Source of the DNA: Calditrichia bacterium
Lineage (GTDB): Bacteria > Calditrichota > Calditrichia > RBG-13-44-9 > J075
DNA: 64,000 nucleotides
Assembly (NCBI GenBank): GCA_050633245.1
Contig: JBOEGD010000026.1
Location: 1-64,000 of the forward strand
Direction: 5' to 3'
Shown: one piece after another, positions 29,680 to 43,925 of the stretch
Layout of the letters: each line of letters begins with the position of its first letter
Numbering within the stretch: the stretch's first letter is position 1
The notes under the pieces: model-generated
Database searches by the model: none
Told to the model about the DNA's origin: nothing
Seen by the model: the letters and a program-made list of their open reading frames with translations, nothing else
Made by a program: the position numbers and the translations under genes

Positions 29680-29840
29680 AAAAGCAGGAGTCAGGAGTTC
29701 CCGGACGGCCGGGATCAGGTGTCAGGCAGAAAGGCAGAAAGGCAGAAAATAAGGTGAGAAACGGTGAGAAGTGGTGAGAAGTGGTAAGGGATCGAGCTGT
29801 GTCTCGATCCAGCTTATCAATAATAATTCATCATTCATCA
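29680..29840. repeat. Mosaic intergenic repeat tract: (AGGCAGAA)x3, (GGTGAGAA..)x3, TCGA hairpin, (TTCATCA)n
   Basis: Directly visible; units shared with 2431-2545, 16720-16800 and 31900-31957. Confidence 0.75.
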
Positions 29841-30682
29841 TTTGTAATCTTTCCCCAGCGCAGCAATGGCCGTGTTAAAAACATTCTGGATCGTGTATTG
29901 GCAATTCGCCAGGCTCGATCGGAGTGGAGCTGCATTCCGGCTTCTTCTAGTCGTAGCATATCTGTATTGTCGAGAAATCCCCGACAAGGATGAAGCATCA
30001 TGTCGGTTCCATACAATGCTTTGAAGTCTGCTGAGCGTTCAGCAATTTTCTTGGCCTGTGCCAGTGCGTCATAATAAAATGTTAGACCCGTTGCGATAAG
30101 AATACCGTTACTTTTTGTCAGTTGTTTTAATGTGTGAATATAGCCAATCGGATCTGCGAAGAATGCCAGGCAGCGATTGAGGATAATGACATCGAACTGT
30201 TTCTTGATGATTAATGGTTCGGCTAAATTCATTTGCACACATTGCCATTCCTGCTCGTAATGCTTCACTGCGCGCAACCCATCGAAATCATCGGAAAAGT
30301 AATCCAGAGCTGTTACGCGGTGTCCAAGACGAACTAAATTATTGCACAACCAACCATTCCACGCGCCGATTTCTAAAATCTGAAGGTTACTTCTGTCTTT
30401 TAATTCAGCTGTAAGTTGCTGTAGATCAATCTGTCTGTCCCGCCATTCCGGGTGATTGCCTGCTCCCGGCCCAAATGGCAAGTCCTGAAAATGTTGTGGA
30501 TCGCGAATTCGTTGTTGATCCATTTTTGCTCGGGAGAGCTTTAATGCCGCTTCCAACTCCAGAATGCGATTGGCAACATCCGATTGCAAAATACTCCAGA
30601 TCCCGGATTCATTTTTAATCGAATAGCCTTTGGCTTCAAGCGACGTAAGATCGCCTACAAGCTCAATGAGTTCACTATTCAT
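29831..30682 (-). CDS. Class I SAM-dependent methyltransferase
   Basis: ILEIGAWNGW, FDVII motifs. Confidence 0.85.
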   Translation of the reverse strand: MNSELIELVGDLTSLEAKGYSIKNESGIWSILQSDVANRILELEAALKLSRAKMDQQRIRDPQHFQDLPFGPGAGNHPEWRDRQIDLQQLTAELKDRSNLQILEIGAWNGWLCNNLVRLGHRVTALDYFSDDFDGLRAVKHYEQEWQCVQMNLAEPLIIKKQFDVIILNRCLAFFADPIGYIHTLKQLTKSNGILIATGLTFYYDALAQAKKIAERSADFKALYGTDMMLHPCRGFLDNTDMLRLEEAGMQLHSDRAWRIANTRSRMFLTRPLLRWGKITNDE

Positions 30683-31863
30683 TTTTTCTCCTCTACAGAA
30701 GTTCTCTCGCTGGTCCAATAGGCAATTGCCATCGTTGTTTGGGCAAGCGCGCTACCGGCAAGCGCACCGGTAATATGGTATGTCTGAACAAGAAAAAGTG
30801 TGAGCAGCGCATTCATCAGAATTCCCAAAGTATTAATTATTACCACTTTTTTGGTTTTCTCTTCCCGATAGAGCTTATAGATAATAGGTAGATAGGCGTA
30901 AATCGGTAGCACGAATAAGACGGCCCATATGAGTTGAGCAAGGGAAAGCTCGAATTGATATAGCGCAGCAATCGCAAACGCCACAGTTGGGACCGCAAGT
31001 GCCAGAATTACGCAGCCTAACAACGTTAGCCTTGCAGTCAGTTTATATAATGCTTCTGCTGGTAGTCGGAAAATATTCTTCAAAAATGGTTGAAGAATAA
31101 ATGCTGCCAGAGTTTGTAAGTAAATCAAAATGTTGATGGTGATTTGATAACGTCCTACAGATGAGCTCTCAAGAAACCCACTCACAATATAGAGATCGGT
31201 ACGAGATTGAAGCATCCCGGTGAGGCCCAAAATTAAGAATGGAATAGATGCCGTCAGCTCCGATTTTTGAAAGCGATATCGAAGATCCTTTAAAACGCTT
31301 TTGCGAAATAGAATTGTCAGGAGAATTGCTTTGAGAGTCGAGCCCAATGCAAATGCGGCAATCACTGTATCTGTGGACAGGTGCTCATGTCGCCAAAAAA
31401 TCATTGAAAGAATGGCGATTAGAGCAATAATTTCGATCAATAAAGACTTAGTAAACTTGCGATAGAAAATAATGATCGCTTCAAAAGATTGAGATAGAAA
31501 TGCAGCGCCGATCCACAGGGAAATATACAGAATGCTGTTTAAAGAAAGCGGAAAGAGACAAACAAGAAGCAAAATCGGAGCAAGAAGTACGAGTCTGCTA
31601 CTAACGTTTTGCTGCCAGATATTCGATACGCCGGAGGGCATGCGACTATACTCGCGCAACAGATACTCGCGGTTTCCCCAATAGATGAGATGATTTGCCA
31701 GATTTACGATAATCAAAACGCGTACAAACTCACCCCAAATCTCTACAGATCCCAAACGCACAACCAGCAGTGATACTGCAACGTTCAAAATGGGGGCGAC
31801 CAGCGTGTTTGCCGAACTGATTACAATTAACCAAAGTCTATTAAGCAGTTTGGGGATTTTCAC
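30679..31863 (-). CDS. Polysaccharide flippase (Wzx/MOP superfamily)
   Basis: About 12 TMs; RTDLYIV..VGRY and GALAG patterns; glycan-cluster context. Confidence 0.8.
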   Translation of the reverse strand: MKIPKLLNRLWLIVISSANTLVAPILNVAVSLLVVRLGSVEIWGEFVRVLIIVNLANHLIYWGNREYLLREYSRMPSGVSNIWQQNVSSRLVLLAPILLLVCLFPLSLNSILYISLWIGAAFLSQSFEAIIIFYRKFTKSLLIEIIALIAILSMIFWRHEHLSTDTVIAAFALGSTLKAILLTILFRKSVLKDLRYRFQKSELTASIPFLILGLTGMLQSRTDLYIVSGFLESSSVGRYQITINILIYLQTLAAFILQPFLKNIFRLPAEALYKLTARLTLLGCVILALAVPTVAFAIAALYQFELSLAQLIWAVLFVLPIYAYLPIIYKLYREEKTKKVVIINTLGILMNALLTLFLVQTYHITGALAGSALAQTTMAIAYWTSERTSVEEKK

Positions 31864-31910
31864 GATTGTCCATGCACTGTTCGTTTACTCTGCCCAGTAT
31901 ACGGTGAGAA

Positions 31911-31957
31911 AAGGCAATAAGGCAATAAGGCAATAAGGCAATAGGGCAATAGGGCAA
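31911..31957. repeat. Octamer tandem repeat (ARGGCAAT) x ~6
   Basis: Same unit as 3536-3604. Confidence 0.88.
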
Positions 31958-32061
31958 AATATATATTTGAGAAGCGGAGAACCTTTAAGCCATAGAAATT
32001 TAATGACCTTCTGCTACACAAGCTAGAAATTAACCCCGTTACCCCGTTATCCCGTCACGAC

Positions 32062-32742
32062 CTAATTCCAGACAAAGAGTTTGCCCACAACCTTTACCAC
32101 CCCATAGGCCAGATAGCCAAGTGGACCCGGTTTTAGCTTCTCTTGTGTTTCAATAGTAACTGTCGCATAAGCATCCAGATGCTGCAGGCGATTCATCTTG
32201 CCTTTGAGGCGTTCGATGGTGACATTCAAGCGTTCAAGCTCTTTCTCTATAGCCAGAGCCTGAGATACTCCCTTAGCCATTGCCAACAATTCGATATAAC
32301 GCTGTCGCGTTTTTTCTGCTGTATCCAAGCGAACGGTTAAGTCCTGATACTGCTCGGTTATATCCACACCGCGAATGTCTTTGCTTACGACCTTAGCCAA
32401 CGCTTCAATTTCTATTATGGCCTCTTCCATCCTCTCTGATGGAACGCGAATCTCAGTGGATTGTTTTTGCATTTTTAGAAGATAACCACCATGTTTCTTA
32501 GCAATTGAGTTCACTGCCAAATGAAGGTCTGGTGCTTTATCCTTAGCGACCTCCAGACGCAATGCAGCGTCATAAATCATCATGCGGTCGATTGCTTCGT
32601 GTTGCTTTGCCAGTTGTTGCAGCTCCGTTACCAGAACCGGGTCTTGAGATTGTATTGCAGGCTGAGTGAGGTGCGTTCGCTGTGAGCAGCTCAATACCAA
32701 AATTAAGAGAGAAAAAATGCCGAGGATGGGATTGAATCGCAT
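32062..32742 (-). CDS. DUF4349-family lipoprotein
   Basis: VLSC lipobox; GGY, IRVP, DITEQYQD, coiled coil, ATVTI. Confidence 0.85.
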   Translation of the reverse strand: MRFNPILGIFSLLILVLSCSQRTHLTQPAIQSQDPVLVTELQQLAKQHEAIDRMMIYDAALRLEVAKDKAPDLHLAVNSIAKKHGGYLLKMQKQSTEIRVPSERMEEAIIEIEALAKVVSKDIRGVDITEQYQDLTVRLDTAEKTRQRYIELLAMAKGVSQALAIEKELERLNVTIERLKGKMNRLQHLDAYATVTIETQEKLKPGPLGYLAYGVVKVVGKLFVWN

Positions 32743-32762
32743 GAAATGCTCCTTGTTAAACG

Positions 32763-33824
32763 TTACGGTTTCCGCGGGCGGCGATACAATCTTACAAAAT
32801 CTCGAATGGTCTCGTCGATGGATTGAATCATAATAGACCGCGTGTCTGGTGGTGATTGCAGCTGTTCACGTAACGTTTTTAGCATGTCTCTCCGATTTAG
32901 GCATAAATGTGTTTTTGGTGAGTTAGCTGCTCCAACATCGAAGCAAATAACGCGCATTCCACTATACAAGGCTTCATTAAATACGTAGCCTTGAGATTCA
33001 TAGCTTGAAGTGTGGAGTAATATTAAGCTATCTGCCATATGCTGAAGCACATCTTTGCGGGGTAAGTGTCCCATTAGTTTCATTGTCGCATTAAGATCTT
33101 TATCAGCAACTAACTGTTCTATGTTTTTACGCTCCGGACCATCGCCAATTAGAACGCATTTTAAGTCATTGAAATCGGATCGTATTTCATCGATTAACTC
33201 AACAAAGAGTTGGTAGTTTTTTAATTCTGTCAGCGCGCCGACACCGAGAATATGAATTTGTCGCGCAGTATTTGCCTCTGGGAAATCATTTCTTTGCAGG
33301 CCGATGGGGATAATCGCATCGATAGAGCCGCGATTTCCCAGCGCATCTGCTGCATTGGCCGATCCCGCGGTACTTGTAAAACGCTCGAAGTTTAGTCTCT
33401 TTAAATAGCGGTTGTTGCTTCGTGCATCTTGTCCCATTACTGATGCTACATGCGGCAGAGAATAGAAGCGTGCTGCATGCTGACCAATAAGCGATGTCTC
33501 CTCCAACCAAAAACTATGAATCAGATCAATTGTCTTTTTTCGCTGAATATTACGAATATAGTTCATCGCGATTGCCCATGTCCATAGGCGACGAATTTTC
33601 CCCCTGTTTTGACCTCCACATGAGTAAACGTCAATTCCGTTCCACATATAGTAGCCACGGGCAAATGGATATTGCATGCTAATAATGCTTATTTGAATGT
33701 CCGGATGGGAATTGGCAAGTGCACGGACGTAGCTTTGCAGCGCTGGAATGCAGGTCGTGTCCTGCTCGTTTTCAGGGAAGCCGGGGACGATTAGTAGGAT
33801 GTGCTGTAGCGGCTTATCGGGCAC
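32763..33824 (-). CDS. GT4 glycosyltransferase
   Basis: VGAL..KN, IGDGPE, TSSYESQG..EAL. Confidence 0.88.
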   Translation of the reverse strand: MPDKPLQHILLIVPGFPENEQDTTCIPALQSYVRALANSHPDIQISIISMQYPFARGYYMWNGIDVYSCGGQNRGKIRRLWTWAIAMNYIRNIQRKKTIDLIHSFWLEETSLIGQHAARFYSLPHVASVMGQDARSNNRYLKRLNFERFTSTAGSANAADALGNRGSIDAIIPIGLQRNDFPEANTARQIHILGVGALTELKNYQLFVELIDEIRSDFNDLKCVLIGDGPERKNIEQLVADKDLNATMKLMGHLPRKDVLQHMADSLILLHTSSYESQGYVFNEALYSGMRVICFDVGAANSPKTHLCLNRRDMLKTLREQLQSPPDTRSIMIQSIDETIRDFVRLYRRPRKP

Positions 33825-35268
33825 CAGGTGTCTCCGGAACTGTGTTTGTGGCGATCTCTGCTACTTTATACAATGTCCAACCCTGGGGGAGCACTTTTAC
33901 AGGCTGCAGGCTGTAGGTTGTTTTCAAGAATTCCCAGTTTAGCATAGGATTCTTTCCCTGCCACTGCACGGCGAATTTTTGCGGATTGAAAAGCAATAGC
34001 GACGGAGTCTTTGCCGCTGCCAGTTTTTCATAATATAGATTAATAATTTCATTTTTCACGTCATAACTACGAAGAGAAAGATCTATCCAAAAGGTATAAA
34101 TCGGCAGATTGTCTTGCTGTTTTATTTCAAGAGCTATTGTCTTCTCCAGCTTGTTTGCCTGATATAGCGGGTTTGCATAACGCATAATTAGAAGCAGTTG
34201 AGTGACTATCAACAAAAGGTATAACGCATATCTGAAACGAGTTGACGGCAGCCACTTATGAAGGCGTTGCCAACCCGGAAATAGTACAATAAAACATAAC
34301 GGAAACGCTGGCAATAAAAATCGCAGGTTTTGAAAAGGAACCCCGGCAAGAAAGAGCCCGTACAGTGCAATACTGCCAATCAACAAAAAGTTCTTTTTTA
34401 TATCCACGGGTCGCAAGCAGAGTAGTAAAATGAAACCGGGCAGAATAAAGCCCGGATGAAATAAAGCGCTTCCTGCATAGACGATATTGGGGAGTGTATA
34501 ATTGGCGAAGCCATCCAATGTTTGAAAACTGCGTATTGGCCAGTTCCCCAAAGACCAACTCACTAACCACGGATGCGCAAGAAACGCGCTGCTTTCGCCA
34601 CCTCGAAGCAACATGTGCGGTATTGCAGGAGCAAGCGAGAAAAGAGCGCACTTAATTAGAAATAACGGTCTAAATGTGGACATTTGAATGCGTAAAAAAA
34701 AGATGACCGGCAAAGCGATAAGTGGTGCAACGGCATAGCGTGTGGTTACGGCACACGCTGCGTAAAACAACAGGAGGATATAGCCGTTGTCTGTCGGCCT
34801 TGTTCGCAATCGATGCGCCATAAAAAAAGTGGCCATTATAAAAGCAGCGGCCAGCATGTCAGACATAATGAGCAGGCTGTTAGTAAAAAAAAGAGGCGAC
34901 AGAAGTAAAAGGATGAGAATATACGATGTTCGCCCTAAGGCATTCGGATAGACAGACTGCAAATAACTGCTTGTCATCCATATCGTTGCAGATGCCGCGA
35001 GCATTGAAATAAGCTGTGCGGATATCGCGCTGTCACGAAGAAAAATTGCTAATATAGCTGCGTCCAATGGATAGTTCACCGGCCAAAAAAAAATCCCCGG
35101 GTGCTGTCCCTCCTCTAAAAATATGCGCAGACGCTCTGCAAAACGTAAATATTCGTGACTATCCTGCCCATAGAGCCCGTTGAAGTCGGAAAAAAAGCGA
35201 ATAATGAGTACGGTAAGGAAGAAACATGATGAAAGAAAAATGGGGGAGGTTAATTTGATGTTTCGCAT
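33814..35268 (-). CDS. Multi-TM GT-C-like (ArnT/PMT) glycosyltransferase
   Basis: GQDSHEY loop, WPVNYP, MSD, TRY, RFLLP; many TMs. Confidence 0.7.
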   Translation of the reverse strand: MRNIKLTSPIFLSSCFFLTVLIIRFFSDFNGLYGQDSHEYLRFAERLRIFLEEGQHPGIFFWPVNYPLDAAILAIFLRDSAISAQLISMLAASATIWMTSSYLQSVYPNALGRTSYILILLLLSPLFFTNSLLIMSDMLAAAFIMATFFMAHRLRTRPTDNGYILLLFYAACAVTTRYAVAPLIALPVIFFLRIQMSTFRPLFLIKCALFSLAPAIPHMLLRGGESSAFLAHPWLVSWSLGNWPIRSFQTLDGFANYTLPNIVYAGSALFHPGFILPGFILLLCLRPVDIKKNFLLIGSIALYGLFLAGVPFQNLRFLLPAFPLCFIVLFPGWQRLHKWLPSTRFRYALYLLLIVTQLLLIMRYANPLYQANKLEKTIALEIKQQDNLPIYTFWIDLSLRSYDVKNEIINLYYEKLAAAKTPSLLLFNPQKFAVQWQGKNPMLNWEFLKTTYSLQPVKVLPQGWTLYKVAEIATNTVPETPGAR

Positions 35269-35431
35269 GGAGTCGTATCACTTGGATGTTGATGAAATCT
35301 AACCGAATATAGGCATTTCGCAGTTTGTTACAAGCTAATGCTGATAAAGTGTATCGGAAAAATTTATATTTTGCTCAGCTTGGAGAGAAGTCAATCCGAA
35401 ACTAATTATAGCATAAAACAAGGAGGTTGAT

Positions 35432-36511
35432 ATGCTGGAAGCTGTGAATCGAGAACAATCAGATGTCCTTGTGTCTGTTGAAACCATGAAGGCATTGGTC
35501 TATTACGGTAGCCGTGATATTCGAATAGAACATGTTGAAAAACCCACCCCCGGACCTAATGAAGTATTGATTCGGGTAACTCACGCCGGAATCTCTCAAA
35601 CTCAAGTAAATGAATTTGTTGAAGGCCCTTTTGTTATCAATACAGCTCCGCATCCCCTTACCGGAAAAGCTGTCCCGCTTATTCCCGGTCACGAATTTGG
35701 TGGTATTATTGAAGAAGTTGGCGCTACTGCCGGTAAGCAGCTTATCGGCAAGCAAGTCGCGGCATTACCACGGATAACGTGTGGAGAGTGTCGCTATTGT
35801 AGGTCTGGTAAAGAACATATCTGCAAGAAAATTGCCTATATCGGTTTGCTTGGTGAGAATGGTGGTTTTGCTCAATATGCCGTTGTACCAAAGCAAAATA
35901 TTGTGGAGGTGCAGGATACTGCTGCTATGTCTTTTATTGAGCCGATTCTTGTTGGACTTCATGCCGGAAGAGTTATTCAACACTTATTGCCTGCCAGTAA
36001 GGTGCTGGTTATGGGAGCGGGAGGTATTGGTGTTTGTCTGGCCGCAGTTTTACGAGATTACTTTCGAGCTGATGTTACGCTTACCGATATTTTGCCAAAT
36101 CGTCTTGCACGTATCAAAAAAGCGGGCTTCAATGTCTTGGGTAAAAATCAGTTGAAGCGCGAGTATGATATTGTAATCGATTGTGCCGGAGGCGATCCGA
36201 TAAGTCAACGCTCAGCAATCTTTGAGGCATTTGATTATATCTATAACGGCGGGACAGTGCTTAATCTTGGGACTTATTTCCACCCGCTCTCCTTTGTACC
36301 GGTTACACTCACGGTTCCTGAAATGCAGCTGAGAACGTCCTTTGCTTATGATTCGCATGATGAAGAGCTGCTCAATGATGCGTTGGAGGCGATCAAACTC
36401 GACTTCAGCGAGCTTATTGATAAGATTGACTTTGATAAACTTATCGTTGAGGGATACTTTCGTTCGGAAGTAGACAAAGACAGCTTTATCCGTTTGGTGG
36501 TGCAACCGTAA
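35432..36511 (+). CDS. Zn-binding MDR, (R,R)-2,3-butanediol dehydrogenase homolog with a degenerate catalytic site
   Basis: PHPLTG..PGHEFGG, CGECRYC..C structural Zn site, GAGGIG; canonical CGICGSDLHE reads AGISQTQVNE; AGGAGG SD. Confidence 0.88.
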   Translation: MLEAVNREQSDVLVSVETMKALVYYGSRDIRIEHVEKPTPGPNEVLIRVTHAGISQTQVNEFVEGPFVINTAPHPLTGKAVPLIPGHEFGGIIEEVGATAGKQLIGKQVAALPRITCGECRYCRSGKEHICKKIAYIGLLGENGGFAQYAVVPKQNIVEVQDTAAMSFIEPILVGLHAGRVIQHLLPASKVLVMGAGGIGVCLAAVLRDYFRADVTLTDILPNRLARIKKAGFNVLGKNQLKREYDIVIDCAGGDPISQRSAIFEAFDYIYNGGTVLNLGTYFHPLSFVPVTLTVPEMQLRTSFAYDSHDEELLNDALEAIKLDFSELIDKIDFDKLIVEGYFRSEVDKDSFIRLVVQP

Positions 36512-38175
36512 TGCAACTGGAGAAGCTCATAGCCGATATGCTTCAGGTTGAAATTCTTCCTGAAGATCAGGAATTGAGTTCGGATGCCGAACTAAAGCGA
36601 ATTCCACTGCGCAATACCGGGATGGTTGTCTATGTGGACAACAGCTATTCTACGTCTGAGATTTTTCGCATAAAGAGCAGCCTGGAAAAACTGCTTACCA
36701 AAATTCAACCTATGCAGGCGGCTCAGGCAGAAAACGATATTCTTCGCAATGAGCTTCGTGATATCTCTGCCGCTGCCGATAAGCTGGCTCTTCAGGGCGT
36801 TGCACTTGAATATGAGTTCGATTTTTTGGCGGTTGTAAAAGCGCGCTATGTTCTTTTAAAGAACGATCAAGTATTAGTTAACACCGGCCTGGATGAACAC
36901 ACAATTAAGTCATCTGCTCACAAATTGATTCACCGAAATACATTTTCACTCTATATCCGTGCAGGGGAACTGATCGGTTTTAAAACGACCAGCTACAAGC
37001 TAATTGTGGTGAGTGACGAGATTTTGGATGAATCAATTAAACAGATCATCTCTACCAAGCTCAATTGGCTGGAGAGAATGCTTCAGCAGACAAGCCAGGA
37101 GCTGGAGGCTGTTTTTGAAGTGATCCCCGACTTGTTTTTGAGGGTCGATAATCAGGGTATACTTTTGGACTCTCGTGGTTCGCTTGTCTGTGGGTTACAT
37201 AATTTTACCGGCGAGAACTTGGGTAAGCCGCTTTATGGTGTTTTACTCCCGGATGTCACGGAGCAATTTCGTGCTGCGCTAGAAAGCTGTTTATCCAATA
37301 ACGCCCGTGAAACAGTAGAGTTTAGCTCGAATCGATGTAATGGTATCATGCACTATGAATCGCGCTTTGTACCGCTCTCGGAATCGCAGGCTGTTATCAT
37401 TATTCGGGATATTACGTATCAAAAAGAGGTGGCAGAAAATCAACATCTGCTTTTAGACCGAGTCGAGAGCATAAATTCAGAGCTAAAAGATTTTGCATAT
37501 ATTGTCTCTCACGACTTAAAGGCACCACTGCGTTCAATAAAGTCGATCTCCGATTGGCTGATAAGCGATTACCAGGAACAGCTCGACGATAGCGGAAAAG
37601 AAATGCTCGATCTTCTGGGAAGCAGGGTATTGCGCATGCACAACCTTATCGAAGGAGTGCTGGCATACTCGCGGGTTGGCCAGGCAAACGAAGATCGGGT
37701 TTTGGTCGACTTGCAGCAATCTGTGAAAGACGTAACTGAGATGCTTAGTCCACCGGAGAACATCGAGATTCAGGTTTTGGGCTCACTACCAACGTTGCGG
37801 ATTGGTAAAACCAGAATTGAACAGGTTTTTCAAAACTTCCTGAGTAATGCTATTAAGTATATGGATAAAGAAAATGGCAAAGTTGAGGTTAGCTATACCA
37901 GGTCGGCTTCGGAGTGTATCTTTTGCATCAAAGATAACGGACCAGGTATTTCGGAGAAACATTTTGATCGAATCTTTCGCATCTTCCAAACCGTTTCCGG
38001 TAAAGAGAGTTTCGAAAATACCGGCGTAGGCCTTAGCATTATAAAAAAGATTGTTGAAAACTATGGTGGAAGAGTCTGGATAGAATCGGTGGAGGGAGAA
38101 GGCTCTTCTTTCTTTTTCAGTTTACCGAATAACATGAGTGTTAATGCTTCAGAAGAAGAGCCTGTCGCTTTTTAA
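36511..38175 (+). CDS. Cytoplasmic PAS-domain sensor histidine kinase
   Basis: IPD...IIRDIT PAS, SHDLKAPLR H-box, N/G1/F/G2 boxes; no TM; TAATG overlap with the MDR gene. Confidence 0.92.
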   Translation: MQLEKLIADMLQVEILPEDQELSSDAELKRIPLRNTGMVVYVDNSYSTSEIFRIKSSLEKLLTKIQPMQAAQAENDILRNELRDISAAADKLALQGVALEYEFDFLAVVKARYVLLKNDQVLVNTGLDEHTIKSSAHKLIHRNTFSLYIRAGELIGFKTTSYKLIVVSDEILDESIKQIISTKLNWLERMLQQTSQELEAVFEVIPDLFLRVDNQGILLDSRGSLVCGLHNFTGENLGKPLYGVLLPDVTEQFRAALESCLSNNARETVEFSSNRCNGIMHYESRFVPLSESQAVIIIRDITYQKEVAENQHLLLDRVESINSELKDFAYIVSHDLKAPLRSIKSISDWLISDYQEQLDDSGKEMLDLLGSRVLRMHNLIEGVLAYSRVGQANEDRVLVDLQQSVKDVTEMLSPPENIEIQVLGSLPTLRIGKTRIEQVFQNFLSNAIKYMDKENGKVEVSYTRSASECIFCIKDNGPGISEKHFDRIFRIFQTVSGKESFENTGVGLSIIKKIVENYGGRVWIESVEGEGSSFFFSLPNNMSVNASEEEPVAF

Positions 38176-38976
38176 CTATCTTTTTATACATAGCCATGGA
38201 AATGGCGACTTTGGAGTTCCTTTCAACTTTTGACCCAATCTTATGCGAAACGATCGTGGATCGTATAAGGTCTTTGGCTTAAACGCCGCGAGTTCTTCAT
38301 ACGCATGATGGAAAAAATGAGAGCTTAACGCTGGAAATCCTGCCGACTGATAATAGCTGTTGCTCCGAGTTTTAGCAGCTTCGATTCCTTCTCTCGCATA
38401 GAATGGGCTGTCGATAATATGAACTTCTCCGCCCTCAGCCAGAAAGTATTGCAATCTGTTTAGTAATGTAGTGACGTTTGGAAAATACTGAATCGAGCTT
38501 CCCAATAAAATGATGTCAAAACACTTTTCCGGAAGAACGTTGTCAAAAATACTGCCATACAGCCACAGCAATTTATCGCCGTATTCATGGAAGACCCGAG
38601 CCGCTTGCAGCAGTTCTTCGCTGTTCATGTCAAGCCCGACAGTTAGTTGGGAATAGGGGTGGAGATGTCGGGTCATCCAGCCATTACCACAGCCAATGTC
38701 TAACAGACGGGGTGGACTTTTTAGATCGGATAAGTAGCGTTGCATTCGTTCGAGAGACTGCGCGCGAATCGTCCATTCTTGTGTTAGAGGATGATTTTCT
38801 GAAACCAGTGGCAAGGCATACAGCTGCGCATCGGAATAAAATCGACCTTCTTTTTTGCGTAGTGCAATATACGCTTCTTCAAAGCTGGTTGGGATAATGC
38901 GATCGTAGAACCAGAGTCGCTTTTCTCTGCGAGCACCGGCCTGCTTTAATTGATTTTCTAGCTGCTGTAGGGGCAT
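38176..38976 (-). CDS. Class I SAM-dependent methyltransferase (paralog-like of 29831-30682)
   Basis: LLDIGCGNGW, FDII, QYF, IIDSPFY. Confidence 0.88.
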   Translation of the reverse strand: MPLQQLENQLKQAGARREKRLWFYDRIIPTSFEEAYIALRKKEGRFYSDAQLYALPLVSENHPLTQEWTIRAQSLERMQRYLSDLKSPPRLLDIGCGNGWMTRHLHPYSQLTVGLDMNSEELLQAARVFHEYGDKLLWLYGSIFDNVLPEKCFDIILLGSSIQYFPNVTTLLNRLQYFLAEGGEVHIIDSPFYAREGIEAAKTRSNSYYQSAGFPALSSHFFHHAYEELAAFKPKTLYDPRSFRIRLGQKLKGTPKSPFPWLCIKR

Positions 38977-38988
38977 TCTTTTCTCATC

Positions 38989-39753
38989 TTAGCTGTCATC
39001 TCTTCTGGCAAAAACATAGCAGACATGATCTCCGCCAACCCATTCCGGGAGACGTTCCGCAAGATATTTATCCAGTCTTTTTAACAGGGGAAAGAACGGT
39101 ATAAACAATTTTTCATGATTTGCGAATTGATCCGGTGTTGGTAAGACAGATGCCAGATGAACCCGTTGTAAAACTTCAAACTCCGCCGGAAGCATATTTT
39201 TAGAGTAGTAATGCACGCTCATGCCTCCGGAAACCGGTAGCGTTTTAGAAATAAGCCTGCCATATAGTGAGGAAAAGCGCAATCGACAAACATTACCAAG
39301 TGCAGAGAAAAGGTGTAGTGGCGGCATCGTTACAATGATAACTCTTCCACCGGGAGCCAAAAGACGTTTTAGTTTTTTTTGTATCTGCACGATATCCGGC
39401 ATTGCATTAATAACGCCGAAGTTCAGCAGAATGGCATCATAGAGTCTGTCCTCAGGCATCTGAAAAAAATCGAGATGATGGACTTCTGCATCAAGTCCGG
39501 TTTTACCAGACTGTTCTTTTGCAAGTTTTACCATTTCATTGGAAATGTCGAGGGCGGTAACAAGCAGACCACGCGAACCATACCAGCCGAAATCAGAGCC
39601 GGGGCCGCAGCCAACATCCAGCAGCGTGCTGCCGGGAGAGAGCAAATTTGCCAGCACGCGATGGATGCGCTTGCGCTGATATCGTCCAACCCTATTCAGG
39701 TTGAATTTCTGCTCGTAATCTGTTGCGTAGACGTCGAAGGTTGCTTCGATCAT
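38989..39753 (-). CDS. Class I SAM-dependent methyltransferase
   Basis: LLDVGCGPGSD, NFGVIN, LAPGG. Confidence 0.88.
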   Translation of the reverse strand: MIEATFDVYATDYEQKFNLNRVGRYQRKRIHRVLANLLSPGSTLLDVGCGPGSDFGWYGSRGLLVTALDISNEMVKLAKEQSGKTGLDAEVHHLDFFQMPEDRLYDAILLNFGVINAMPDIVQIQKKLKRLLAPGGRVIIVTMPPLHLFSALGNVCRLRFSSLYGRLISKTLPVSGGMSVHYYSKNMLPAEFEVLQRVHLASVLPTPDQFANHEKLFIPFFPLLKRLDKYLAERLPEWVGGDHVCYVFARRDDS

Positions 39754-39784
39754 GTGGCTATCTTAGTTGGCCTGAGGCGAATTG

Positions 39785-41167
39785 TCAAGTATTTTTTGCT
39801 CTTTGGGATTTCCGGTAGACCAGAAACAGCGTCATCAGCAGAATTGCCAGCATATACGCTGCATTAACTAACATAAAGTTGCGTTTAAAAAAGCTCTCGT
39901 TTACGTCGCGCTGGAGCCACTCGGAGAGCTTCCCGTAAATTTGCTGTCGCATCGCCGGCGGAAAGCTGCCAATTCGGGTATCGTGATAACCACCGGGATT
40001 TATCATGCGCAGTGCATCGACAGATGTGGCAGGAACAACTCCAGCTCCACTCCAGGTATCTAATTCTCCATGGATGTAAAGAATCTCGTTGCCTTCGTTT
40101 ACCAGCCACTGATGAATATCCTGCATAACCTCCGGACGATAGGTGAGATCGGCTTCCTGTGGTGCAAACGGACGATTGGAGGGCTCCGGGGCGGATGTTA
40201 GTAGATGAGCAAGGTGGTTGCTGACAAATCCGTAGTAGCCCAGCTCCGTCATTGCCTGATAAAAGAACGGCTGATAGGTAGTGATGCCTTTTTGAGTATA
40301 CAGGCCGAAAATGTTCATCTTTGCAATATGGCTGAAAATCTGTGCGGCAGATGCTGTCAAATCTGGAATTTGATCGCAACGCCATCTTCCCCATTGCCAA
40401 AAAGAGAAAGGGTATTCCAAAACGGTATATTCCAAAGCCGTATCAGCGCCGTGGGGGAAAACTTCATTCTTCTCGATAGCCCATTCTTCCAGAAGTGGAA
40501 TTAGTTCATGACGCTTCTCAAGCATTAGTATTTGAAACTGTTCAATCGCTTCTCTGCACTCGCTTGTGCCAACGGTTGCGAGATGCTCATCCAGACGTTT
40601 ATCCTCAACTGCCAGTGGAATGGGTGCTACCATCGGGATGGCTACATCGACATCGTTTGGATAGAACCGCTTGTGGAAGAGCGTTGTTTGTCCACCTTTG
40701 CTGATTCCGGTGCTGATCCATTTATCTGCATAGATGGACTTGAAGTGCTCGGCAATTTTGTGTAGGTCGTCGACAGACTGACGAACCGTCAGGTATTGCC
40801 AGTCCAGGCTGTCCGGAACCGATTCTCCGAAAAAGCGATGTTCAACTCTCAATTGATTTGCCGAAAGAAGGTCACACAATTCGCTGCGAACGTGTCCATT
40901 AATTTGGTAGCCTTCGGTAATAAAAATTACCGGCTGGGTGATATCATAATGATCGAGGTAGATGCGCTGCTCAAAGTTGCCCGCTGCCGGGTTTTGATGA
41001 TCCAGTGGCTGCGAGATGAAAATCTCAAACGATTGGTTAAACCCGTCTCGGGTTTCGATTGTTTTAACGCGCATGCCTTCAAGGGCAGATAGTTGATCGC
41101 GGATATCTGCAAGCCCGCAGAGTGTGCAGCCGATTAAGAGTAGCAATATCGAGATAGAGAGTCTCAT
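39785..41167 (-). CDS. S28/S37-type serine aminopeptidase with C-terminal membrane anchor
   Basis: QPLDH, EHRFFG, GISKGG, D..W, H; C-terminal TM plus basic tail. Confidence 0.88.
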   Translation of the reverse strand: MRLSISILLLLIGCTLCGLADIRDQLSALEGMRVKTIETRDGFNQSFEIFISQPLDHQNPAAGNFEQRIYLDHYDITQPVIFITEGYQINGHVRSELCDLLSANQLRVEHRFFGESVPDSLDWQYLTVRQSVDDLHKIAEHFKSIYADKWISTGISKGGQTTLFHKRFYPNDVDVAIPMVAPIPLAVEDKRLDEHLATVGTSECREAIEQFQILMLEKRHELIPLLEEWAIEKNEVFPHGADTALEYTVLEYPFSFWQWGRWRCDQIPDLTASAAQIFSHIAKMNIFGLYTQKGITTYQPFFYQAMTELGYYGFVSNHLAHLLTSAPEPSNRPFAPQEADLTYRPEVMQDIHQWLVNEGNEILYIHGELDTWSGAGVVPATSVDALRMINPGGYHDTRIGSFPPAMRQQIYGKLSEWLQRDVNESFFKRNFMLVNAAYMLAILLMTLFLVYRKSQRAKNT

Positions 41168-41450
41168 AATATCTGTCCGGGGGATACGTTCTTGTCTGGC
41201 TAACCGATTTATTGGCAAATATAATGGACAAAACTGTGATTCGGGATCGGTCAGGCTGAGCGGAGTCGAAGCCCTATTGATATCTTACCAGCTTCTCGGC
41301 TGCGCCAAGGTGACAAAACCCGAGTGGAAATCATTCTGTCAACGTCCGAGTTTTTCAAACATACGATTTTTTGACCAAATCTGCACGTTCTGTGTCTTTT
41401 AATTGTTCGCCATCATCGAACAAGTGAAGGCTCATCAAGGAGAAGCATTT

Positions 41451-41813
41451 ATGAAACCACAGCTCGTTTTTGTCTACAATGCCGATAGCGGTTTGTTTAA
41501 CACCATGGCCGATATTGCGCATAAGCTTATTTCTCCGCAAACCTATAGCTGTAACCTCTGCGCGCTCACCCACACGGCATTTGGAATGAAGGATGACTGG
41601 CGGGATTTTCTGGAAACTCTCAATGCGGAACTGGAGTTTTTGCATCGCGATGAATTTGTTAAGGCCGGTGGTTCCGATAGTGCCGACCTGCCGGCAATCT
41701 TTCTGCGCAAGGAAATCACGTTTGATGTTTGGATGTCGGCGGCTGAGATCAACAAGCTGGAAGATTTGGAGAGTTTGAAAAGCGGTATTCACCAGCGGCT
41801 TCAAGCAGAGTGA
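41451..41813 (+). CDS. Conserved hypothetical protein
   Basis: FVYNADSG...HK..SP.TY.C.LC..T pattern; AGGAG SD. Confidence 0.75.
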   Translation: MKPQLVFVYNADSGLFNTMADIAHKLISPQTYSCNLCALTHTAFGMKDDWRDFLETLNAELEFLHRDEFVKAGGSDSADLPAIFLRKEITFDVWMSAAEINKLEDLESLKSGIHQRLQAE

Positions 41814-42106
41814 GTAGCGGTCTGCTTTTCTGACCCAAAACTATCGCAGCAGCACCATCTTTTTCACCTGTGATTGATTGGCTGCTATTAGATTGTAATC
41901 AATTGTAATAAATGGCAAGTACGTGCCGATAAAGAAATCACTTGCATTGTAGTTACATCGTGTCTGCATTGTAGCTCGGAAATAGAGCAGTTTAGTTGGA
42001 TATTATAAAGCGTGCTCCACCCACATCGATTTTTGTGATCTATAGCGCCCAAGTCGTTTTGTAGGAAGAGTACGCTGATTTTAATTACACAGCCCAAGGT
42101 GTCATT

Positions 42107-42382
42107 ATGAGCAGCAATAAGAACACAGTCGTTAGAGCTCGAATTGATTCTGAGTTAAAACAGGATGTCGAAAGTATATTGAATACTATGGGATTGAATG
42201 TATCTGATGCAATCAGTCTCTTATTCAATATGATTAGACTACATAATGGAATACCCTTTGAAGTTAAAATACCCGTTTTAAAACCAGAAGTAATTGAAAC
42301 CTTCAAGAAAACTGATGCAAACGAAGACTTAGAAGAATTCGAGACCATTGACGATCTGAGGCAATCAATCAAGAAATGGTGA
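42107..42382 (+). CDS. dinJ: RelB/DinJ-family antitoxin
   Basis: VRARID..LK..V..IL..MGL..SDAI.L....GIPFE. Confidence 0.9.
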   Translation: MSSNKNTVVRARIDSELKQDVESILNTMGLNVSDAISLLFNMIRLHNGIPFEVKIPVLKPEVIETFKKTDANEDLEEFETIDDLRQSIKKW

Positions 42383-42388
42383 TGTGTA

Positions 42389-42648
42389 ATGAAAAAGATT
42401 GTTGTAACGGGTAGTTTCAAGAAAGGGATGAAGAGGGTTAGAAAAAGAGGTTGGGACGAAGAGGAACTTGTAACAGTTGCTCAAATGCTAGCAAAGGATG
42501 AAGTTTTACCTGAGCGATATAAGGATCATAAACTTGTTGGCAACGCCGCGAGTGCCATATACGTCCCGACTGGCTATTAATCTACAAGGTTGAAGAAGAT
42601 CGTATTATTCTTGAATATACCGGAAGTCATTCAGACCTTTTTGACTAA
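42389..42648 (+). pseudogene. yafQ: YafQ mRNA interferase toxin, frameshifted
   Basis: First frame ends ...YKDHKLVGN; a shifted frame from 42547 reads RECHIRPDWLLIYKVEEDRIILEYTGSHSDLFD*. Confidence 0.9.
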
Positions 42649-42851
42649 CCTTATTATTCAGTGATGAAGTTATGATGTCGAGAATGCATTTGACGATTTT
42701 TGGGAGGAACTACCATAAACTTTATGTGAGTTACTTTGTAGGATTGCTTTTGGAAGTAAACTTCAATCTCTAAATCTGATTTTTTTTGACTTCTGCCAAG
42801 GGATTCTTAATACACAATTTAATAAGCTGTTTAAGAGAAAAGAATTGAATG

Positions 42852-42891
42852 AAATGTAAAGCGCCGATTTTTTGACGCTTTACATTTTTTT
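42852..42891 (+). terminator. Hairpin with T-tail between convergent units
   Basis: aaatgtaaagcg...cgctttacattt followed by tttt. Confidence 0.55.
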
Positions 42892-42917
42892 GTAGTAAAT
42901 AAAAATATCGAGGAGTT

Positions 42918-43925
42918 TTAAGGCGTATTACCAATTGCCCAATCAATCAGATACAGTGCCGCAGGCAGATTCTCTTCAAACGTCGGCTGGATCTCGCTAT
43001 CTGGTAGTTCAAAACCGGGAAAACGGCTGCGCGGACGCAATTCAATGGTGAAGGCCATCGCGTTTTGCACGGCATATAACCAGTCCGCAGTGTCTCCACT
43101 GGCAAGATACAGATCGGATGCCTGTTGCGGCGTGTAGGACTTGCCGTGTACCGCCAGTATCTTTGCGGCCATCGCGCTGGCAAGCTGATCGAGCTGCACG
43201 TCATCAGGTGTCGGTGCATTGGTATGTCCCCAGGGATAGAGAACCAGTTGACTATAGCTGTGATAGGTAATCATTGCTTTTGGCTGTTCGCGATTTAGAA
43301 AATCACGCACGGCACGAGACTCCGGCTCCGAGAAGGCTGACGGTCCTCGATAGGTCTCGGAAAAACTGTCTCCCGATGAACCGGGTCCACCCCACTGATA
43401 ACCATAGTTACGATTGAGGTCGACGCCAAATGTTCCATCACCATTATCGCGACGATTTTTACGCCACAGGCGATTGGTGGTAACCGAGTACTGGTGTCCA
43501 TCGGGATTTACCATTGGAACAAACCAAACTTCTGCATTGTCGATTAAGCGCGTTATTAGTGTATCACTCCCGTATGCGTTTAACAGGTGATCCGCAGTTA
43601 GCAATGGAACGTCGACGGAAATCCATTCGCGGGCATGATGTGCGCCAAAGAAAATTACCACCGGTTCGTCTTCATCCTGGCTGACATTGTCGCTTATTTT
43701 TAATGCGGAAATCTGACGCCCTTCCAGAGATTGGCCAATTGAAGACACCGCTGCTATTTGTGGATGCGTGTTTTGAAATGACTGTAGTTTTTGATTCACT
43801 TCCGCATAGTTATGAAAAAGGCCGGCCGTCGGATCGGGCGGAGTGGTGGTGCCGTTACACGAGTTGAGCAGGAATAGCAGGGAAGCATTTAGCAGCATTA
43901 AGGAACTTATTTTCGACCAGCTCAT
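42918..43925 (-). CDS. M14 zinc carboxypeptidase (carboxypeptidase T-like) lipoprotein without prodomain
   Basis: HHARE, RKNR, DLNRN, YHSYS, IELRP; LNSC lipobox. Confidence 0.95.
   Translation of the reverse strand: MSWSKISSLMLLNASLLFLLNSCNGTTTPPDPTAGLFHNYAEVNQKLQSFQNTHPQIAAVSSIGQSLEGRQISALKISDNVSQDEDEPVVIFFGAHHAREWISVDVPLLTADHLLNAYGSDTLITRLIDNAEVWFVPMVNPDGHQYSVTTNRLWRKNRRDNGDGTFGVDLNRNYGYQWGGPGSSGDSFSETYRGPSAFSEPESRAVRDFLNREQPKAMITYHSYSQLVLYPWGHTNAPTPDDVQLDQLASAMAAKILAVHGKSYTPQQASDLYLASGDTADWLYAVQNAMAFTIELRPRSRFPGFELPDSEIQPTFEENLPAALYLIDWAIGNTP

Follow-up and report, generated by a model that had tools for sequence, protein, structure and literature searches.

A zinc-dehydrogenase-like protein co-encoded with kinases and cyclic di-GMP enzymes: a candidate two-protein sensor in bacteria of many phyla

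Introduction

Most cytoplasmic histidine kinases and enzymes acting in cyclic di-GMP (c-di-GMP) signaling have no known signal. Dehydrogenase-like proteins are also found among regulators: Rex, NmrA and CtBP, Rossmann-fold redox or nucleotide sensors, bind NAD(H) and regulate by contacting proteins or DNA, in place of catalysis or beside it. The described systems closest to the one reported here are made of two proteins. H-NOX and NosP proteins are described as controlling kinases and GGDEF/EAL enzymes by direct binding (PMC8846402). In the RsbQ/RsbP-PAS family, an enzyme-family protein is encoded beside a signaling protein, and the study of that family gives 45 such pairs, obtained by neighborhood analysis (PMC3183031). 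Here, we analyzed a stretch of 64,000 nucleotides (hereafter the window) from a Calditrichia bacterium (contig JBOEGD010000026.1, assembly GCA_050633245.1), in which a gene of the medium-chain dehydrogenase/reductase (MDR) superfamily, similar to zinc alcohol dehydrogenases (ADHs), lies at 35432-36511 on the forward strand (open reading frame (ORF) of 359 aa) and is followed at 36511-38175, on the same strand, by the gene of a soluble histidine kinase (ORF of 554 aa). An original prediction, made from the sequence of the window, had read the first gene as that of a catalytically dead enzyme reused as a sensor subunit of the kinase, for a ligand such as a diol or acetoin or for NADH/NAD+. Our analysis leaves us nearly certain that the MDR gene and its partner form a functional two-gene unit, and the pair looks like an unrecognized two-protein sensor used by bacteria of many phyla.

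Results

The two genes overlap by one base in the sequence TAATG (36509-36513, +), as had been noted originally: the last A of the MDR stop codon TAA (36509-36511) is the A of the kinase ATG. By its sequence, this arrangement is one of translational coupling. The first 200 residues of the kinase (36511-37110, +), which we call the N-domain, are conserved in all the partners described below and constitute the proposed docking or input domain. They have no match in Pfam or NCBIfam, in agreement with the original description of this region as unrecognized.

A genome scan with motifs of the MDR subfamily (delimited below), with one genome per species, gave 15 subfamily loci. They were labelled Chloroflexota (five), Peptococcaceae, Deltaproteobacteria, Campylobacterales, Myxococcota, Aquificota/Aquificales (two), uncultured bacterium, Shewanella and Vibrio (two). 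Wherever the DNA after the MDR gene could be read (13/13 loci), the gene that follows it on the same strand fell in the BLAST cluster of the window kinase. The two loci excluded from this count were L012, which ends inside the MDR gene, and L009, which ends 84 codons into the next ORF; the partial ORF of L009 gave a weak match to the N-domain profile (E 2e-4). Metagenome contigs, scanned with the MDR alignment, contained 14 subfamily loci with downstream DNA, and the partner was directly downstream on the same strand in all of them; five further metagenome loci (L029, L030, L034, L036 and L037) stop before the junction. After removal of duplicates (L023 = L011, L033 = L008), 25 non-redundant alignable pairs remained, including that of the window. 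The distance between the MDR gene and its partner ranged from -20 to +2 nt in 26/28 loci, the other two being L027 (+51) and L009, in which the junction is not clear. None of the five loci with only a canonical-type MDR match (L016, L035 and L038-L040; 25-31% identity) had an N-domain partner.

The association was also found in the reverse direction. Among the loci retrieved with the N-domain profile alone, 9/9 new ones presented a subfamily MDR gene directly upstream on the same strand (7/7 in Aquificota and 2/2 in Campylobacterota). Four of these nine loci (L050-L053, from the phylum of the Aquificota-labelled locus L011) carry a divergent MDR clade, still linked, which scores 310-334 bits against the MDR profile. 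This clade presents Thr55, GHS in place of GHE, a deletion of the 8-residue "NTAPHPLT" loop and the motif VAIT(Q/N)xxA(N/K)EYFYGP; the N-domain partners of L050-L053 extend over 501-627 codons (open-frame length), and their MDR genes are located around 446-1504 or else on the reverse strand. A single copy of the N-domain, next to the MDR gene, was found in the genome of the window and in 10/10 other carrier genomes. In the genome of the window, a single subfamily MDR is encoded (531 bits), and the second-ranking match reaches 40 bits. Linkage of motif-bearing MDRs to signaling genes, the check proposed together with the original prediction, was thus observed in the genome, metagenome and reverse sets alike.

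It could be argued that an ordinary dehydrogenase happens to lie beside an unrelated orphan kinase and that its unusual motif is lineage noise, given the full and confidently predicted dehydrogenase fold and the annotation of relatives, by their sources, as butanediol or threonine dehydrogenase-like. This explanation is contradicted by the linkage in 25/25 non-redundant pairs plus 9/9 reverse loci, in records spanning Chloroflexota, Peptococcaceae, Deltaproteobacteria, Campylobacterales, Aquificota, Vibrio and Shewanella. The motif is moreover invariant in the family, and the N-domain occurs in only 71 representatives among 1.84 billion proteins. We consider an incidental adjacency extremely improbable.

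The partners differ in the domains that follow the N-domain. According to Pfam, they include HisKA plus HATPase_c proteins (L001, L004), a hybrid kinase with a receiver (L006), GGDEF proteins (L005, L013, L014), GGDEF-EAL proteins (L008, L010, L011) and a PAS/GAF protein of 1467 aa (L002). Their first ~200 residues are what all of them have in common, whereas their outputs differ. A BLAST search from the N-terminus of the window kinase gave E 1e-48 to 8e-9 for most partners, with weaker values for L013 (2e-4) and L010 (0.025). A word-based search with kinase residues 1-200 had returned 3 close relatives only and was superseded by an exhaustive profile search over 1.84 billion representatives, which yielded 71 proteins at E <=1e-3, including 59 at <=1e-10. 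The output domains of these 71 representatives comprised GGDEF (43), HATPase_c (22), HisKA (20), EAL (16) and receiver (11) domains, and no Pfam family spans the N-domain in any of them. Since the domain lies within the first 236 residues in all 71, none of them is an MDR/N-domain fusion.

Because a conserved N-domain precedes interchangeable kinase, cyclase and phosphodiesterase outputs, it has the organization of an input module, and because the second protein is always co-encoded and translationally coupled, the whole has the anatomy of an accessory sensor. The original prediction, borne out in part, tied the MDR protein to a kinase; the linkage itself is strong, but it concerns the ~200-aa N-domain with its varied outputs and not kinases as such. 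From these features we infer that the two proteins bind each other and that the MDR protein is the input rather than the target, and on balance we favor the view that it is an input subunit docking on the N-domain of its signaling partner. The opposite relation would make the MDR protein a target or cofactor whose activity or stability is controlled by the signaling protein, or a product merely co-expressed with it, with no signal transfer. Adjacency and coupling are silent on the direction of information flow, and Roadblock/LC7-type folds, to which part of the N-domain is compared below, are general protein-binding platforms. However, the N-domain occupies the position of an input domain, N-terminal and ahead of PAS and interchangeable outputs, kinase and c-di-GMP phosphodiesterase outputs would not share one enzyme target, and no other gene is conserved around the pair. 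Such a relation therefore appears improbable to us.

The pairwise distances of MDR proteins and N-domains are correlated (Mantel r 0.90, with 0/2000 permutations as high, for 25 pairs). This is consistent with the view favored above and is not decisive, because co-inherited neighbors are expected to correlate; at the level of sequences, the correlation would thus be a mark of cassette-like inheritance rather than of contact. The N-domain was found in 9/178 genomes of the phylum of L011, in 3/401 sampled genomes of the phylum of the Campylobacterales-labelled locus L008, and in 1/86 genomes of the phylum of the window, namely the genome of the window itself, so that the cassette is rare and patchy. 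The closest relatives of the window cassette are metagenomic, with 63-74% identity. The sequence data suggest that the cassette was acquired by horizontal transfer in the lineage of the window.

We then turn to the MDR protein itself. Pfam identified ADH_N (1.7e-23), ADH_zinc_N staying below its cut-off (28.1 vs 31.8 bits), and all 26 matches to NCBIfam equivalogs were below their cut-offs, the best of them being threonine 3-dehydrogenase (118.4 bits vs 380). The best solved relative by sequence was the (R,R)-butanediol dehydrogenase of B. subtilis (6ie0, 1.2e-27). An AlphaFold2 (AF2) model built with 84 relatives reached a predicted local distance difference test (pLDDT) value of 93.2 and a predicted template modeling (pTM) score of 0.91. 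Compared by Foldseek, it matched 6ie0 with E 2.9e-32 and a query-normalized template modeling (TM) score of 0.80, the scores for 6ie0, RspB (4ilk), HpsP (8wwd) and sorbitol dehydrogenases ranging over 0.77-0.81, with 0.80-0.81 for 6ie0 and 8wwd. According to this model, the window protein is a true member of the MDR fold, with GroES-like and Rossmann domains. The protein had been said to follow 2,3-butanediol dehydrogenase closely; the identity is only ~24-30%.

The HMMER alignment to 6ie0 places the segment AGISQTQVNE (residues 52-61; 35585-35614, +) opposite CGICGSDLHE, exactly as originally read. Ser55 stands in place of the Cys that binds the catalytic zinc, and the canonical G, D and H are replaced by Q56, Q58 and N60. 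The G-S/T-D-x-H segment that follows the ligand Cys is thus represented by Q56-T57-Q58-V59-N60, in which the Thr alone is kept. The catalytic ligand set Cys/His/Glu is incomplete in the window copy through Ser55, but His87 and Glu88 are present, within the GHE of residues 86-88 (35687-35695, +), which covers the second and third ligand positions. The structural-zinc lobe (Cys117, Cys120, Cys123 and Cys131; 35780-35824, +), with Cys in 90-91/94 subfamily members, is retained, as is the Rossmann segment from GAGGIG (195-200) through Asp219, with which the second strand ends (36014-36088, +); the original prediction had described both. This predicted dinucleotide site carries the signature of NAD preference, GxGxxG plus an acidic residue after the second strand. 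With respect to the ligand Cys, the GSDxH segment and the curated cut-offs, the sequence places the protein outside the zinc-dehydrogenase equivalogs.

The remodeled segment is characteristic of a well delimited subfamily. A protein search returned 94 clusters at E <=6e-74 (44-100% identity), and the next match was at 2.3e-34 with 30% identity; the matches beyond this gap have the canonical C-G-[ST]-D motif. The source names of the subfamily include Calditrichota, Deltaproteobacteria, Myxococcota, a Methanosarcinaceae archaeon, Nitrosophilus, Nitratiruptor and Persephonella. Its signature is G[IL][CS]QTQxNEFxEGP, and 30 columns are invariant across the 84 full-length members, among them G53, Q56, T57, E61, F62, G65, P66, E170, P171, G195, G197, G200 and R224. 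Q56, T57 and E61 are present in all 91 members covering the segment; of these, 48 carry Cys at position 55 and 43 carry Ser. G195, G197, G200 and R224 were found in 94/94 members, with D (85) or E (9) at position 219. Since the motif is invariant or nearly so in the 91/91 covering members, the substitutions of the window are due neither to chance nor to a sequencing error, in line with what had been argued from the number of changed positions. A decaying pseudogene is likewise ruled out, together with a sequencing error, by the intact frame and the 30 invariant columns across phyla.

The ligand positions of the catalytic zinc are variable within the subfamily. Among the 91 members covering positions 55 and 86-88, 45 have Cys55 with GHE, 23 have Ser55 with CQE, 11 have Ser55 with SQE, 9 have Ser55 with GHE as in the window, and 3 have Cys55 with GHQ. 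Gln87 is present in 34/93 members, Glu88 is kept in 89/94 and Glu170 in 94/94. Because these positions vary (C/S/T at 55, H/Q at 87, E/Q/S at 88), classical zinc catalysis is not the shared function of the whole family. The zinc ligands vary, but the Q-T-Q-x-N-E-F-x-E-G-P segment stays fixed, and so do the structural lobe and the dinucleotide site. In a quick maximum-likelihood tree built from 88 members plus 6 canonical outgroups (the partial sequences P0004 and P0090-P0094 being omitted), the subfamily is monophyletic with respect to the 6 canonical MDRs (support of 100 in the Shimodaira-Hasegawa-like approximate likelihood-ratio test, SH-aLRT). In this tree, the Cys/His state is basal and paraphyletic, and Ser55 occurs in two separate clades, one of 8 rows including the window (support 99) and one of 33 rows which also have Gln87. 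Linkage to the partner was already in place in the ancestral Cys/His state, and at least two losses of zinc ligands came later.

Two side observations concern these types. Ser55 covaries with Cys86/Gln87 (23) or with Ser86/Gln87 (11), and Cys55 always goes with Gly86/His87 (in the window, the codons concerned are at 35594-35596 and 35687-35692); with a Cys shifted to position 86, a metal or thiol site might be reconstituted. Also, the MDR type tracks the output of the partner: S/GHE proteins go with plain kinases, S/[CS]QE proteins with GGDEF or GGDEF-EAL proteins, and C/GHE proteins with kinases, hybrid kinases or PAS-rich proteins, plus one GGDEF protein. This match probably reflects clade structure rather than an independent association.

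The same counts bear on the explanation that the MDR protein still works as an oxidoreductase, if with an atypical active site, and that the N-domain reads its turnover state or a product that it makes or removes, in the manner of a "trigger enzyme" or of RsbQ. The pair would then still be a sensor module, but without a pseudoenzyme. Nearly half of the members (45/91) keep the Cys/His/Glu set, Thr57, Glu88 and Glu170 are retained along with the NAD site and the full MDR fold, and position 55 remains constrained, with either Cys or Ser apart from the Thr of one divergent clade. Thr57 stands where zinc ADHs have their substrate-contacting Ser/Thr. Against this, 34/91 members lack both Cys55 and His87, and 11 of these also lack a Cys at 55 or 86; the linked divergent clade lacks Glu88 as well, and 91/91 have other residues where the canonical CGxCGSDxH has its G, D and H. 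In our opinion an active enzyme is unlikely, though clearly less so than the alternatives considered above.

The N-domain was modeled by AF2 from 14 sequences (pLDDT 85, pTM 0.53). The model starts with a small alpha/beta unit (1-47), from which a long helix (48-92) leads to a beta-beta-alpha-beta-beta-beta unit (~99-170); the exit helix (174-199) comes last. The order of elements in residues 99-199 is alpha-beta-beta-alpha-beta-beta-beta(-alpha)-like, as in Roadblock/LC7 proteins. Foldseek against the PDB retrieved the Roadblock/LC7 structures 3leq (E ~3e-3, target-normalized TM 0.61) and 9jq8 (0.55), and further matches with E ~1e-3 to 3e-2 were Ragulator subunits, MglB-type proteins, dynein light chains and the longin-type Mon1-Ccz1. 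A Roadblock/LC7-like fold for the second half of the N-domain is thus probable from the model. At the level of sequence, PF03259 gave no match on kinase residues 1-200 at E <=0.01, nor in the 71 relatives at E <=0.001, and among PDB sequences the N-domain profile matched nothing but designed helical repeats, none of them better than E 0.025. The protein Atlas returned no N-domain match >=0.9; a Roadblock/LC7 cluster at 0.83 is a lead only.

The remainder of the window kinase is conventional. The HisKA dimerization and phospho-acceptor domain lies at 37483-37680 (+; Pfam 3.6e-08, 33.8 bits vs a cut-off of 26.9), with the phospho-acceptor His334 in an HDLKAP box (codon 37510-37512), and the HATPase_c catalytic domain at 37810-38130 (+; Pfam 6e-26, 91.5 bits vs 26.4), with the G1 box DNGPGI and the G2 box GVGLS. 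The N-box region NFLSNAIKY is visible in the translation. Judged by its sequence, the protein is a regular HisKA-type kinase with intact motifs. It contains no hydrophobic stretch (the highest Kyte-Doolittle mean over 19 residues is 1.01), as expected of the soluble protein that it was said to be. A PAS domain had also been announced: a PAS_4 match was indeed found in the PAS-like region of residues 235-305 (37213-37425, +; E 0.0039), but with 17.9 bits it is below the cut-off of 23.1.

A prediction of the complex of the MDR protein with the kinase N-terminus had been proposed as a check. It was carried out from the MDR and N-domain alignments at 1:1 stoichiometry, in three runs with three controls. 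The scores were 0.37, 0.34 and 0.40 (median 0.37), in the weak band, and all three controls gave 0.00. At least 75% of contacts are common to the runs, and the partner pLDDT is 70-71. In the calibration, the pass mark was reached by 58/80 solved complexes and by 2/110 mismatched pairs; scores <=0.60 comprised only 7/80 solved complexes, plus both passing mismatches. The models thus raise the odds of binding between the MDR protein and the N-domain a little.

In the window, a Shine-Dalgarno sequence AAGGAGG (35420-35426, +), read directly in the sequence, stands 5 nt ahead of the MDR start codon. From this start, the MDR protein has an 18-residue N-terminal extension (35432-35485) before the consensus start of the subfamily at M19, and residues 1-11 have a pLDDT <50. 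The strong Shine-Dalgarno sequence favors this long form, and the extension is also present in the two closest relatives (357 aa). The flanking genes are all on the opposite strand; besides ORFs with no Pfam family, they comprise those of three methyltransferases, two peptidases (S37 and M14), a DUF4349 protein and a GT1 glycosyltransferase. The pair had been placed in opposite orientation inside a glycan cluster; the orientation is correct, but the "cluster" amounts to one GT1 protein with the methyltransferases, DUF4349 and the two peptidases. Two ORFs beside the glycosyltransferase, at 33814-35268 (-; 484 aa) and 30679-31863 (-; 394 aa), have no Pfam match at E <=1e-4; read by eye, the first looks strongly hydrophobic and might encode a glycosyltransferase-like membrane protein.

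No receiver domain was present in the 10 flanking ORFs scanned (29831-43925), again as originally noted, and the kinase is for this reason an orphan rather than a non-kinase. Close to the pair in L002, L008 and L010 are short ORFs (125-219 aa) that belong to one cluster and might encode response regulators. Beyond the MDR/partner pair no synteny is conserved: the other neighbor clusters are lineage-specific, and the neighbors in the window are unrelated. A scan for promoters and terminators remained at background (7 promoter-like sequences vs 6.2 expected, 5 terminator-like vs 2.8). In a search of sequencing runs, no RNA run was listed, and the DNA runs share <=0.13 of words.

Discussion

We hypothesize that the MDR protein derives from a zinc dehydrogenase of the polyol or butanediol type, whose catalytic centre would have been remodeled while the structural-zinc lobe and the Rossmann site for NAD(H) were kept. 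Translational coupling would ensure that it is made in step with the kinase, on whose N-terminal ~200-aa domain, probably Roadblock/LC7-like in its second half, it would dock. NADH versus NAD+, or a small polar metabolite held in a pocket of Q56, T57, Q58, N60 and E61, would change the conformation of the MDR protein. This change would reach the HisKA/HATPase core by way of the exit helix (174-199) and then the PAS-like region, and would alter the autophosphorylation of His334, the response regulator being encoded elsewhere. In other organisms, the same input pair would drive GGDEF, GGDEF-EAL or hybrid-kinase outputs. Binding of NAD(H) and/or of a small polar ligand appears to be the most economical function for the MDR protein, and we infer both such a ligand and a loss of catalysis. 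Taken as a whole, the scenario of a pseudo-dehydrogenase acting as cytoplasmic NAD(H) or metabolite receptor, signaling through a new Roadblock-like docking domain to two-component and c-di-GMP outputs, in a two-gene cassette which moves between phyla and whose catalytic site decayed after recruitment, is one that we hold tentatively, as a serious possibility; the pair would then be the first example of a signal-input system not described before.

Several points weigh against the docking hypothesis. Most of the linkage loci were retrieved by means of the MDR motif, and the test that started from the N-domain consists of 9 new loci from two phyla. The similarity to Roadblock/LC7 proteins is moderate, and no sequence model detects it. 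The score of the complex lies within the weak band. The residues retained, namely the Cys/His/Glu set of 45/91 members together with Thr57, Glu88 and Glu170, would fit an enzymatic role. Lastly, strict operon linkage would also be expected if the MDR protein made or removed the ligand of the N-domain.

The accessory-sensor scenario nevertheless has practical consequences. It provides a defined and testable candidate input for 71 representative clusters with kinase, hybrid kinase, GGDEF and GGDEF-EAL outputs. With it, the MDR superfamily would join the few enzyme folds that serve a second time as dedicated sensor subunits, and a new family of N-terminal domains is defined. The loss of zinc ligands after linkage offers a natural series for the change from enzyme to receptor. 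According to record and source names, culturable hosts include Vibrio hannami, Persephonella, Nitratiruptor tergarcus and Nitrosophilus kaiyonis.

Comparison with known systems

To our knowledge, no Rossmann-fold redox or nucleotide sensor derived from a dehydrogenase belongs to the MDR superfamily or feeds two-component or c-di-GMP signaling through a dedicated docking domain. A literature search, which left out most subscription journals and all supplements, found no paper in which a kinase or a GGDEF protein has an MDR or an alcohol-dehydrogenase-like protein as its partner. In the text of the 2022 census of c-di-GMP sensory inputs, the words "dehydrogenase" and "Roadblock" have 0 occurrences (PMC8846402).

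With the zinc MDRs 6ie0, 4ilk, 8wwd and 1pl6, the window protein shares the fold, the GroES-like domain, the structural-zinc lobe and GxGxxG with its acidic residue. It differs from them by its low identity (24-30%), by Ser in place of the catalytic Cys, by QTQxN in place of GSDxH and by its obligate linkage to a signaling gene. Rex, NmrA and CtBP belong to other dehydrogenase superfamilies and act on transcription, whereas the protein reported here has the MDR fold. The N-domain resembles Roadblock/LC7 proteins, among them those of the actinobacterial conservons, encoded beside a kinase, through the predicted fold of residues ~99-199; such proteins serve in signaling as platforms for protein binding. 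Unlike them, it is fused to the N-terminus of a signaling enzyme and preceded by an alpha/beta unit and a long helix, with no linked small GTPase.

As in H-NOX/NosP systems, a stand-alone soluble sensor protein would be co-encoded with a soluble kinase or c-di-GMP enzyme, with varied outputs. H-NOX is a haem protein; here, the sensor would have an MDR fold with a dinucleotide site, the receiving part would be a dedicated ~200-aa N-domain, and binding between the two is proposed. The RsbQ-PAS family likewise presents a class-specific N-terminal domain, then a helix, then interchangeable outputs (phosphatase, kinase and diguanylate cyclase in that case). In contrast to RsbQ-PAS, the co-encoded protein is an MDR and not an alpha/beta hydrolase, and the domain facing it is predicted to be Roadblock-like and not PAS; also, RsbQ keeps its catalytic apparatus, whereas the zinc ligands drift in the MDR subfamily. 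As in a bipartite sensor, the two genes are adjacent and co-oriented across distant taxa, and a class-specific domain is conserved while the outputs vary. The sequences thus point to an accessory-protein sensor module with two new parts, an MDR-type subunit and an N-terminal domain family, which by analogy would work like the H-NOX or RsbQ-PAS modules while sharing neither component with them.

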